A stretch of 64,000 bases of DNA from Octopus vulgaris (taxonomy: Eukaryota). This document shows, in pieces, positions 6,538-25,152 of the stretch; the first letter of the stretch is position 1; every line of letters starts with the position of its first letter. The position numbers and the translations under genes were made by a program. The notes beneath the pieces were generated by a model. That model was not told where the DNA came from and did no database searches. It saw only the letters and a list, made by a program, of their open reading frames with translations. The stretch is taken from assembly GCA_951406725.2 (NCBI GenBank), contig OX597823.1, forward strand, positions 102,238,001 through 102,302,000, written 5' to 3'.

Positions 6538-6543
<6 letters not shown>

Positions 6544-6733
6544 AAATGGAGGAACAGATTCATTTCAATCATCGACTTACAGATATTACCAATTCATATT
6601 ATTTGTTAACTACATAAATAGGAACATCCAAATCCAACAAAACATGTTCCTATTTAAGTAGTTAATAAATAATATGAATTGGTAATATCTGTAAGTCGAT
6701 GATTGAAATGAATCTGTTCCTCCATTTTCTTAT
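6538..6733. repeat. Inverted repeat with ~90-bp arms (6538-6627 / 6644-6733) and a 16-nt spacer
   Basis: Arms are reverse complements with a few mismatches. Preceded by (TA)n. Confidence 0.92.
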
Positions 6734-10669: not shown

Positions 10670-10727
<58 letters not shown>

Positions 10728-10780
10728 TGAATTGAAGAAATGGAGCTGAACGCAGATTGAACAGAAATCGTTTTATTTCA

Positions 10781-10859
10781 TTCTACACGTGTTTCGAAAG
10801 GCACAATTTCCCAAATCCGATTGAATAATGGGACCATATTGTGTCTTTCTCTTCAGGAA
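10781..10859 (-). ncRNA. Type I hammerhead ribozyme motif (left-arm mirror copy)
   Basis: Reverse complement of 11040-11118. Confidence 0.75.
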
Positions 10860-11039
10860 GAATATAGGAAATCCGTTGGAAAAAACAAAAACAGAATAGA
10901 GGCGGAGCAAAAACAAATCGAACTATGCTCCTAAGAGCCCATGGCGAAACTTCGCCATGGGCTCTTAGGAGCATAGTTCGATTTGTTTTTGCTCCGCCTC
11001 TGTTCTGTTTTTGTTTTTTCCAACGGATTTCCTATATTC

Positions 11040-11118
11040 TTCCTGAAGAGAAAGACACAATATGGTCCCATTATTCAATCGGATTTGGGAAATTGTGCCT
11101 TTCGAAACACGTGTAGAA
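11040..11118 (+). ncRNA. Type I hammerhead ribozyme motif with extended stem II
   Basis: uuc-CUGAAGA-[gaaagacacaau...auugugccuuuc]-GAA-ACACGUGU-A^gaa. Palindromic stem III, GUA triplet. Confidence 0.75.
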
Positions 11119-11328
11119 TGAAATAAAACGATTTCTGTTCAATCTGCGTTCAGCTCCATTTCTTCAATTCACCAATAATGTTTTAATTTCAATTATCCGC
11201 ACCAACGCACGGTTGCAACACCATATGGTTGTACCTCCAACCGTGCTGTTTACTGCTGTGATTTTTGCTACTAAGGTATCGGTTAAACCTTTGATTAATC
11301 TACTACAAGATTATTCATCTTTCTATTT

Positions 11329-18402: not shown

Positions 18403-19034
18403 ATATATACTATATATATGAAGTATACATGCGTGGGCATATTTATATATATGTATATATATACGTACAGGCATATGTGTGTGTGTGTGTGCTTGTGCGT
18501 CTGTGAGTAGATATGTAATCACGACGCCGTTCCGGCATACCCACAAACAACAAACTAACACCAATAAAAAAGATTAAAAGAGAATCCAGAAGAAGCACGT
18601 TAGATTTTCTAATTCCTCTCTTACTTCTCATCCTCCTCTAATTACTGGAGGGACAGTAAAAGCGGAAGAGTCGGAAGAAGAATATAAAAAGTACAACAAG
18701 AGAAGCAATCACACACGTATCACAGACGCCCGTGATCAATGAAGTGAACGGTGGTAATGTACGGAAATCGACTCAGTCAACTAAACTGTCGTTATTTGCA
18801 TCAATTAAATGAAATCCTATATACTACAATCGGTTTCACATAATTGCGTGTCGCATAATTGCATAATTTGTTTAGTTCCTTTGTTGCATCTCGGGCAGAT
18901 CATTATGCCAATAATAAGCACACGTAGTGATTCTTTTTACAGGTACTTGTATTTTTTTGCAGCGTGGAAGGTGTTTATAAGCCATTTAAGAAACACACAA
19001 AAACCGTTAGATACCCTTCAACATTTAAATTTAA

Positions 19035-19085
19035 TTTGTCAAAATATTTTCATCGCTTTGAGACTGCGACCTGTTCACTGACAAA
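19035..19085 (-). ncRNA. Type I hammerhead, G3-C8 core variant
   Basis: uuuguca-GUGAACA-G-gucgc(agucucaaa)gcgau-GAA-AAUAUU-U^ugacaaa. 7-bp stem I. Confidence 0.7.
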
Positions 19086-19104
19086 ACTTCGTGCTGCACG
19101 CAGT

Positions 19105-19155
19105 TTTGTCCGTGAACAGGTCGCGGTCTCAAAGCGATGAAAATATTTTGACAAA
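19105..19155 (+). ncRNA. Type I hammerhead, G3-C8 core variant (right-arm copy)
   Basis: Mirror of 19035-19085 with one stem I mismatch. Confidence 0.65.
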
Positions 19156-20457
19156 TTAAATTTAAATGTTGAAGGGTATCTAACGGTTTTTGTGTGTTTC
19201 TTAAATGGCTTATAAACACCTTCCATGCTGCAATTGTTTTCGTTACAGCACACGATCTCAGATCAAGTCACTCGCTATGCAAGTACATCTCCGTAATGTA
19301 TTTTTTTTTGTTTTTTGTTTTTTGGTTTTTATCAATTGGTTAACCATTTAACCAGTTTACTAATCGATTGTTCGGTCGGTCAATCAGTCAGCTAGGTTTG
19401 TCAAAGTCCTTTCGCCACCATTCGCGAATACATCGATGACATTCCCTCACTATTCCAGGTATGCTTCAGGACTTCATGCCTGTCTCCTAGTTTACAGGTT
19501 ATACATTTACCATTATTTTCTGGCATACAAGTTGATGTAGTGTAAACTTGTTAACACTCAAACATATGTCCAAATTCTGCTCCATTTTACATGGACTTTT
19601 TGGTTTTCCAAAGTTATCGTGGTGCATAAGTTGACCTACCTTTTCATGGCCGTAAATTTAGTTTGAAAAATTCGACTTGTACGCCGGAGAATACGGTGTA
19701 TCTATATGGAACTGAGGAAGAATGTGTGAGCATTCACCAACCCATTTATCAAAAATCTGTATGAAATTCATCTGTTAATTATAAATGCAAATAAATTTAA
19801 TTTCAATTAATTTTAGGGGACAATACATTCCAATTTCGTGTAAAGAAAAAATGAAGGGAATGAAAAATCTTGTTATGAACACAGAGTTACAAACTGGCAA
19901 ACCAGAGAACATCCATCGGATAACTATTGTAGTATACAAATTTCGATATAAATAGGTGTAAGTAGTAAACTGTGACTGCGAAGTTGTTCGAGAGCGTGAC
20001 AAGGGAGACAAGTGTGTCAGGCCGATAAAGAGCGATAGGATGGACGGTGAAAATATGTTGGAGAAAGATGGCGTAAGGAAGTGTGCATTTGTGAATTATG
20101 GGCAGGCACGTATGAAATAAATATAGTAGTTTGCGCATGTGCGTCTGAAATTGACCGGTTAATGGTAACTGCAAATAAAATCAATTTCAGTTAATTGCAA
20201 GAAGGGTTTTATCTTTTTCCCAATTTTGAGCAAAAACAAAAATAAAAACTGAAAAGAATGAAAACTTCGTCAGCTCGAAGCCACAAATTGTCAAACCACA
20301 CAATACATACTAGACATGTCTGAAGTACGGCTGTGTAGAAGAAGCTCGCTTAGGAAGCACGCAGTTTCAAGCAGCACCTTGGGCATTGGTCTTCTACTGT
20401 AGCCCCGGACTGGCCTATGCCGTGTGTCTGAATTTGGTAGACGGAAACTGTGGAAAC

Positions 20458-21245: not shown

Positions 21246-21281
<36 letters not shown>

Positions 21282-21289
<8 letters not shown>

Positions 21290-21754
21290 ATTAGGGCTTA
21301 GTAAAATAAATTACTTTGCCATATACTGAACTTAGTAGAAATAGCAGCCAAAAAAATTTTCTTAGCATTTCTACTACTTAAAGAAAAATTTCTCTCAGAT
21401 AATGTTTACTCCAGACAGCTCACGAAGGTTTGGGGGTAAATACAGAAAAATATCACAAGTACATAGATCGTTTGAGTGTTTCCAAATCCAAATTAAGAAA
21501 TTTTGAGCTGACGAAAGAAATGCTGATTTTATTTGGCTAATCTTGAAACGTTGACGTACTCAAACGATCTATGTACTTGTGATATTTTTCTGTATTTACC
21601 CCAAACCTTCGTGAGCTGTCTGGAGTAAACATTATCTGAGAGAAATTTTTCTTTAAGTAGTAGAAATGCTAAGAAAATTTTTTTTTGGCTGCTATTTCTA
21701 CTAAGTTCAGTATATGGCAAAGTAATTTATTTTACTAAGCCCTAATTATATAAT
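21282..21754. repeat. Inverted repeat, arms 21282-21477 / 21558-21754, with the HHR core in the spacer
   Basis: ~196-bp arms near-identical. Flanked by (TA)n. Confidence 0.93.
21502..21564 (+). ncRNA. Canonical type I hammerhead ribozyme
   Basis: uuugag-CUGACGA-aaga..gcuga..uuggc..ucuu-GAA-ACGU(ug)ACGU-A^cucaaa. 6-bp stem I, GUA triplet. Confidence 0.8.
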
Positions 21755-21850
21755 GTAATATTTTGAATTCGCCTTAAATGGTCCTTTTACATACTGAACA
21801 CTTGGTGAAACTGATTAATTGATTAATTAATTAATTTTACCCTCAATTGT

Positions 21851-21927
<77 letters not shown>

Positions 21928-22034
21928 GGCTTAGTAAAATAAATTATGAATTCGCCTTAAATGGTCCCTTTACATACTGAACACTTGGTGAAATTGATTA
22001 ATAATTAATTAATTAATTTTACCCTCAATTGTTG

Positions 22035-22078
<44 letters not shown>

Positions 22079-24787: not shown

Positions 24788-24819
<32 letters not shown>

Positions 24820-24820
<1 letters not shown>

Positions 24821-25097
24821 TGTTGTGTCTGGGGAGAGTCATTTTCTTTTTGTGCGTTATAATTTAACACACTCACCGGTAAAATTTCCACATCTCTTTT
24901 TTATTTTCCTAAAATTTTCGTTGCGTCTTGCAACCTTTTCAATAATTTTGACTCTCAAGAGTCAAAACTATTGAAAAAGTTGCAAGATGCAATGAAAATT
25001 TTAGAAAAATAAAAATAAGAAAAAAGTGGAAATTTTACCGGTGAGTGTGTTACATTATAAGGCACAAAAAGAAAATGACTCTCCCCAGACACAACAG
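24820..25097. repeat. ~278-bp palindrome centred at 24956-24957
   Basis: Arms are reverse complements with several mismatches. Flanked by (TA)n. Confidence 0.93.
24909..24945 (-). ncRNA. Minimal hammerhead-like motif, U3-A8 variant
   Basis: uua-UUGAAAA-G-guugc(aagac)gcaac-GAA-AAUU-U^uag. Mirror copy at 24968-25004 (+). Confidence 0.5.
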
Positions 25098-25152
25098 AAT
25101 ATGCTTCAACACACGAACTCATATAAAGAATCTTGCAAACCAAATCCCAAAA

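Follow-up and report, generated by a model that had tools for sequence, protein, structure and literature searches.

Results

A head-to-head pair of hammerhead repeat copies in a (TA)n tract

The insertion analyzed here lies in a 64,000-nucleotide stretch of the Octopus vulgaris genome (contig OX597823.1; hereafter, the window) and occupies positions 21282-21856, flanked on both sides by (TA)n. Coordinates refer to the window throughout, and monomer positions are numbered so that base 1 (+1) is the first base after the predicted hammerhead cut. The following features were delimited.

21251-21281, no strand: (TA)n target, left flank, assigned from the sequence; most family arms adjoin (TA)n at their outer end
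21282-21477, minus strand: left arm, monomer 196 back to +1, short-start, without the hammerhead core
21475-21477, no strand: 3-nt microhomology at the head-to-head junction, leaving the left-arm end ambiguous from -1 to +3
21478-21856, plus strand: right arm, monomer 485-565 followed by 1-290, long-start, reading through the intact hammerhead
21502-21564, plus strand: predicted type I hammerhead ribozyme (motif scan, fold energy, conserved core), with the predicted cut between 21558 and 21559
21755-21856, plus strand: putative "tail" between two inferred reverse transcriptase start sites, on one arm only, named by analogy with PMC11167929 and PMC8557442
21857-21923, no strand: (TA)n target, right flank, assigned from the sequence
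21926-22035, no strand: second, miniature two-armed insert of the same retrozyme family in the same (TA)n tract

Alignment of the left arm (21282-21477, 196 nt) with the reverse complement of 21558-21754 (197 nt) yields 195 identities and no mismatches, with three gap positions confined to two homopolymer runs, and the coordinates at which the initial annotation had placed an inverted copy are thus accurate. The inverted repeat itself is far beyond chance; its placement at the cut is not. The family sequence lying just before the right arm is matched as well by 21475-21477, the final bases of the left arm (6 of 7 positions agree over 21471-21477), so the left arm may truly end anywhere from -1 to +3 of the cut. 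The copy had been described as beginning within 1 nt of the scissile bond; the interval does include the cut, but 1 nt is one extreme of it. The inner ends of the two arms are about 80 nt apart in the monomer, without a palindrome, both arms carry a variant present in 1 of 162 other arms, and the locus contains just one whole ribozyme. The miniature insert at 21926-22035, with a minus arm of about 21-30 nt and a plus arm of about 89 nt, again combines a short start and a long start.

Other fold-back repeats are present in the window. A different one at 10722-11177 has a hammerhead-like motif of its own, with the core at about 11043 and the cut predicted after about 11115, and the turning point of this repeat falls near 10950, about 165 nt upstream of the predicted cut and not at it. 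Three further fold-back repeats, at 18957-19233, 24815-25102 and 6538-6733, are unrelated to the retrozyme family; two of them adjoin (TA)n.

A predicted type I hammerhead with a conserved core

The hammerhead motif reported previously at 21502-21564, with a cut predicted after A21558, is indeed present. It presents the type I arrangement of a CUGANGA...GAAA...UH core and three helices with stem I open, consisting of a 6-bp stem I, a CUGACGA core, an extended stem II, GAAA, and a stem III of three pairs closed by a 4-nt loop, and the cleavage triplet GUA spans 21556-21558. The hammerhead fold has an energy of -9.2 kcal/mol, close to the -9.6 of the minimum-energy fold. When 21495-21572 is folded freely, the result is unremarkable (z -0.95), and an Rfam search of the region returned no hammerhead match at the gathering score, nor at E up to 10. 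Hence, the ribozyme call rests on the motif and its conservation.

Hammerhead positions N7 and H17 are free to vary. Among the diverged variants of the family found by alignment, in which the flanks are 65-86% identical, 11 core bases are unchanged in all 11 distinct variants, which represent about four lineages and are not independent; N7 and H17 do vary, and the rest of the core is invariant. Together with the step in end density described below, this conserved core argues weakly and indirectly for a working ribozyme in this family. Contigs assembled from presumed-RNA runs cover parts of the monomer, two of them bridging the cut and one run having a hole there, but contigs cannot show RNA ends and were left out of the evidence. 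Sister subfamilies at 65-86% identity were also identified (L052, L057, L369, L282-L311), some of which have GUU instead of GUA together with a shortened, palindromic stem III with which cleavage would require a dimer.

The repeat family and its relation to retrozymes

A search of the octopus genome (2.8 Gb) with the right arm as query returned 1711 candidates, and full-length matches among the 40 of these 1711 that were scored are 98-100% identical. The exact 23-mer beginning at the cut occurs 400 times in the assembly. The unit, defined by a natural tandem copy (L002), measures 565 nt from cut to cut; its GC content is 24-43% by segment, and the two-armed copy L002 (931-2730) contains no ATG frame of 50 amino acids or more. 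Mapping of 191 loci yielded 230 distinct arms, 214 of which were retained (at least 88% identity and at least 25 nt). The 3' (outer) ends of these 214 arms form two clusters, here termed long-start (monomer 294, n = 92; 290, n = 11) and short-start (203, n = 68; 194, n = 15; 196, n = 5), and adjoin (TA)n, and the 5' ends are spread all round the 565-nt unit. An inverted arm follows 125 of the 214 arms. Arms reach 1924 nt in length, and 63 of the 167 typed arms exceed one unit.

Judged by its sequence, the family is a young 565-nt non-coding hammerhead repeat of the metazoan non-LTR retrozyme kind, with a layout that is already known. It combines a tandem unit of a few hundred bp bearing a type I hammerhead, absence of coding capacity and a GC content below 50%, the non-coding tandem unit with a type I hammerhead being the arrangement described for metazoan non-LTR retrozymes (Cervera and de la Pena 2020, PMC7229834). 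It also displays the layout of endonuclease-bearing (EN+) Penelope-type insertions: 5' truncation, partial tandem arrangement, an inverted copy truncated at its 5' end, a one-sided tail and an AT-rich or (TA)n target; within (TA)n, any target-site duplication would be masked. An autonomous Penelope-like element (PLE) was considered and rejected, as the family is without a reading frame for a reverse transcriptase and GIY-YIG endonuclease.

Retrozymes have been proposed to be non-autonomous PLE derivatives (Li, Clavereau and Pollet 2026, 10.64898/2026.07.22.740005). With metazoan non-LTR retrozymes the family shares a tandem unit that is non-coding, low in GC and equipped with a single type I hammerhead, dispersal as monomers and short multimers, and a proposed role as non-autonomous partner of PLEs. 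It differs in its 565-nt unit, which is longer than the typical 150-450 bp (PMC7229834) but inside the 51-972 bp range (10.64898/2026.07.22.740005), and in the single whole ribozyme of the studied locus. Head-to-head two-armed insertions do not appear as a retrozyme feature in the available text of these sources, where the word "inverted" occurs 0 times (PMC7229834) and once (10.64898/2026.07.22.740005).

Arm ends do not pile up at the predicted cut

The initial annotation had interpreted the inversion as a fossil of reverse transcription running to the 5' end of a self-cleaved RNA, and had proposed enrichment of breakpoints at the NUH site across genomic copies as its test. Arm ends were therefore collected by a whole-assembly search in which an exact anchor is preceded at a fixed distance by a non-family base, each match being checked for family sequence resuming upstream. 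The interval -13..+5 gave 24 matches, comprising five intact variants, one duplicate and 18 distinct ends, located at -13, -11, -10, -5, -3, -2 (three), -1 (the studied copy), +1, +2, +3, +4 (five) and +5. The interval +8..+23 gave 38 matches and 28 distinct junction strings, or 30 arms if two symmetric junctions contribute both of their arms; one end came with its locus and not via the pattern. The interval -33..-17 gave 33 matches and 14 ends, one match being judged from the matched string only. A further interval, +51..+66, showed about 21 ends by eye among the first 100 of 120 matches; it is dominated by a sister subfamily with a 1-nt indel and was left outside all tests.

The end counts thus stand at 14 in -33..-17, 4 in -13..-4, 14 in -3..+5 and 29-30 in +8..+23, corresponding to 2.3, 1.0, 4.2 and 4.5 ends per nt per 1000 passes, uncorrected; the passes at risk (363-420) are estimates scaled from the 23-mer count, with an assumed capture factor of 0.82. 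Ends fitting the exact cut (-2, -1, +1) number 5, versus 5.7 expected from the downstream rate (P = 0.68) and 3.9 expected from all four intervals (P = 0.35); only versus the 2.2 expected from the upstream rate is there a hint of excess (P = 0.075). One further arm starting at +1 (L037) escaped the pattern search owing to a mutation in the anchor. A spike of arm ends at the cut is therefore rejected. Exact-site stops amount to about 1.5% of passes, with an upper bound of 3.4%, and about 96% of passes cross -3..+5; several exact-cut copies are consequently expected among some 400 passes.

Since no spike exists at the cut, the studied copy is not evidence of cleavage, and the end of its left arm at the predicted cut is probably a coincidence. 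The fossil interpretation is not supported for this copy: exact-cut ends occur at the expected rate, the inversion is family-wide, and inner ends lie all round the monomer. The suggestion that it provides indirect evidence of in vivo cleavage likewise finds no support, as the genome-wide spike is missing.

A broad step in end density across the cut

End density is 2.5-fold higher downstream than upstream of the cut (P = 0.0008), or 2.2-fold higher with the boundary set exactly at the cut (P = 0.003); the windows used for this comparison were chosen after looking at the data. In a census of arms on three contigs (C1-C3), 44 stops were found in 11661 nt of monomer 1-190, versus 59 in 23798 nt of monomer 191-565, so that stops are 1.5 times as frequent in the former (P = 0.036), the rate being highest on the second pass. 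By bins, stops per 1000 amount to 2.9 for monomer 1-94, which is the mean and unremarkable, 4.6 for 95-188 and 2.3 for 189-282, and the overall heterogeneity is not significant (P = 0.11).

Any one of the following could produce the step: erosion of cleaved ends, a pause at the ribozyme helices, a promoter inside the unit or a source of limited length. Whether cleavage is the cause is close to an even question, tilting slightly against. If it is, about half of the ends near +1 would derive from cleavage, which sets the chance that this holds for the studied copy considerably lower. The corresponding reading is that the short-start cDNA of the studied copy was extended to the very 5' end of an RNA that had cleaved itself and that the downstream excess of ends comes from cleaved, partly eroded templates. 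It draws on the inclusion of the cut in the interval -1..+3, on the step itself and the elevated stop rate in monomer 1-190, on the core that varies just at N7 and H17 in all 11 diverged variants, and on a 2.5-unit arm (L097) that starts exactly at +1. Yet no spike is seen at +1, roughly 96% of passes cross the site, two-fold differences between neighboring bins occur elsewhere in the monomer, the windows of the step are post hoc, and a similar step would arise from pausing where the ribozyme helices have their 3' foot, from an internal promoter or from sources of limited length. We regard run-off at a cleaved end as an unlikely origin of this copy, albeit one that retains some weight.

Inverted pairs join a short-start with a long-start arm

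A total of 70 head-to-head pairs were assembled by pooling several searches, so that they do not constitute an unbiased census, and they include one passenger fragment and the miniature insert at 21926-22035. Of these, 58 combine a short-start with a long-start arm, one is long-long, none is short-short and 11 have one end elsewhere; among typed pairs, 58 of 59 follow the short-plus-long rule. Minor alleles common to both partner arms number 5.55 per kb, versus 0.85 for arms of different loci (48 pairs; reached in 0 of 1000 resamplings). Their inner ends are uncorrelated, with 4 of 51 within 20 nt versus 3.7 expected, and the arms overlap by a few bases at 34 of 51 family junctions.

These patterns bear on the two routes that had been offered for the inversion, template switching and second-strand priming. 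The second is supported by the two-start rule, the shared rare variants and the uncorrelated inner ends, whereas a template switch is at odds with outer ends that obey the rule in nearly every typed pair. A fold-back origin more generally, in which a single reverse transcriptase left the RNA for the opposite strand or primed itself on an antisense template, would likewise give partner arms common rare variants. A minority of junctions (L229, L246, L249, L261) are near-perfect palindromes in which both arms end at about the same position, at short self-complementary words, and self-priming from such palindromes has been proposed for Penelope head-to-head repeats (PMC3846280). However, inner ends are uncorrelated overall and lie some 80 nt apart without a palindrome at the studied locus, and fold-back gives no reason for the second arm to stop at a fixed site that is always the opposite of two. 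Strict fold-back was accordingly rejected, the self-priming model fitting a few palindromic junctions and not the two-start rule, and we deem such an origin of the studied inversion very improbable.

An assembly artefact in the form of a fold-back chimera was also weighed. The arms are nearly identical, and among the contigs of four public runs none crosses the junction, although such a hole proves nothing for this repeat. The same layout, however, obeys the two-start rule at dozens of loci, two homopolymers have different lengths in the two arms, and the studied junction, which is no mirror point, was found once among the 24 matches of the interval -13..+5. The two-start rule makes an artefact very unlikely, and it was rejected.

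Candidate mobilizing elements

Two young PLE-like families with long frames were found in the genome, one with 713 amino acids from the first Met and the other with open frames of 727 amino acids. On the basis of their motifs, we take both to encode a PLE reverse transcriptase with a C-terminal GIY-YIG domain. A Pfam search names neither protein family, GIY-YIG being below the cut-off in one of them. Comparison of the monomer with the untranslated regions of three PLE families revealed no similarity beyond that of shuffles, and comparison with 14 PLE loci gave nothing beyond a 19-nt antisense match (E = 0.04).

The 713-aa family (L322 7272-9410 and 9755-9967; L118, L324-L331) has 218 candidates and its own hammerhead-like motif upstream of the frame. 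Downstream of the frame, 9 of 10 stretches, with two overlapping, contain a decayed two-armed retrozyme fragment, and the family has spread this head-to-head fragment as a passenger in its microsatellite-rich 3' region. The 727-aa family (L362-L364) has many intact frames, with tandem and head-to-head copies, and is apparently recently active. Neither was accepted as the mobilizer: the untranslated regions of both lack similarity to the monomer, and in the 713-aa family the passenger fragment is not proof.

Discussion

The evidence assembled above favors, with fair but far from complete confidence, the following account of the locus. Two 5'-truncated copies of the 565-nt non-coding hammerhead repeat stand head to head in (TA)n, likely produced by a Penelope-type reverse transcriptase-endonuclease acting in trans, which primed one cDNA on each target strand, the cDNA ends then being joined; the end of the left arm at the cut is probably coincidental. 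A multimeric or circular repeat RNA would first be bound by the enzyme. Both (TA)n strands would then be nicked, as the fixed outer ends suggest, one priming at about monomer 196-203 and the other at about 290. The stops of the cDNAs are visible as a pattern in the data: they are broadly distributed, at about three per 1000 nt, and usually lie past an intact hammerhead. Finally, the two cDNA 3' ends would be joined through a few matching bases, three in the case of 21475-21477. The ribozyme probably functions in the life cycle of the family, in monomer release or circle formation, but cleaved 5' ends contribute no more than a small and blurred share of the arm ends. Against this two-cDNA explanation, the step shows that arm ends depart somewhat from randomness, and some of the ends near +1, perhaps the studied one among them, may derive from cleaved RNA.

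Known systems provide close parallels. Endonuclease-bearing PLEs typically insert into (TA)n targets and show a 5'-truncated copy in inverted orientation as well as a tail on one side, and the family shares with their insertions 5' truncation, partial tandems, the inverted 5'-truncated copy, the one-end tail, the (TA)n target and microhomology at the 5' junction (Craig et al. 2021, PMC8557442; Arkhipova et al. 2013, PMC3846280). It differs from them in being without a reading frame, in a tail of about 90 nt versus 30-40 bp for PLEs, and in that no autonomous partner with a matching pseudo-LTR was found among the PLE families compared. In vitro, a purified PLE protein, Poseidon PAc of Anolis, nicks and extends both strands, with two internal RNA starts that bound the tail (Frangieh et al. 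2024, PMC11167929). The protein is a predicted dimer and inserts unprocessed RNA equally well when the hammerhead is dead, and no RNA-seq reads began or ended at the hammerhead cut (PMC11167929). The octopus family agrees with Poseidon PAc in the two internal starts bounding the tail, the nicking and extension of both strands, the AT-rich targets and the dispensability of cleavage for insertion. In contrast, no start difference between strands was seen in vitro (PMC11167929), whereas here 58 of 59 typed pairs use different starts.

The roles of hammerheads in PLEs and retrozymes, and the origin of inverted repeats and tails, are called open in PMC8557442 and PMC11167929, and the single copy studied here does not settle the hammerhead role. 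In the portion of the literature covered, we found no genome-wide test of ends versus the hammerhead cut and no short-plus-long pairing rule; the one-end tail is in print. For annotation, caution is called for when a lone breakpoint falls at a ribozyme site, since such cases are expected by chance once a family has hundreds of copies.

At the level of the family, two constraints emerge. The pairing of a short with a long start is near-universal and the same variant is copied in both arms, which favors two-strand priming over fold-back. A more specific reading, which we put forward only tentatively and hold to be doubtful, is that the family records Penelope-type insertion in which the two subunits of a dimer, one at each fixed site, prime the two target strands on a single RNA species, and that the density step is a population-level footprint of germ-line ribozyme cleavage, through cleaved, eroded or circularized templates. 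As the second constraint, no more than about 3% of passes can be explained by run-off at an intact cleaved end, while the broad two-fold step leaves room for cleavage in a minority of templates.
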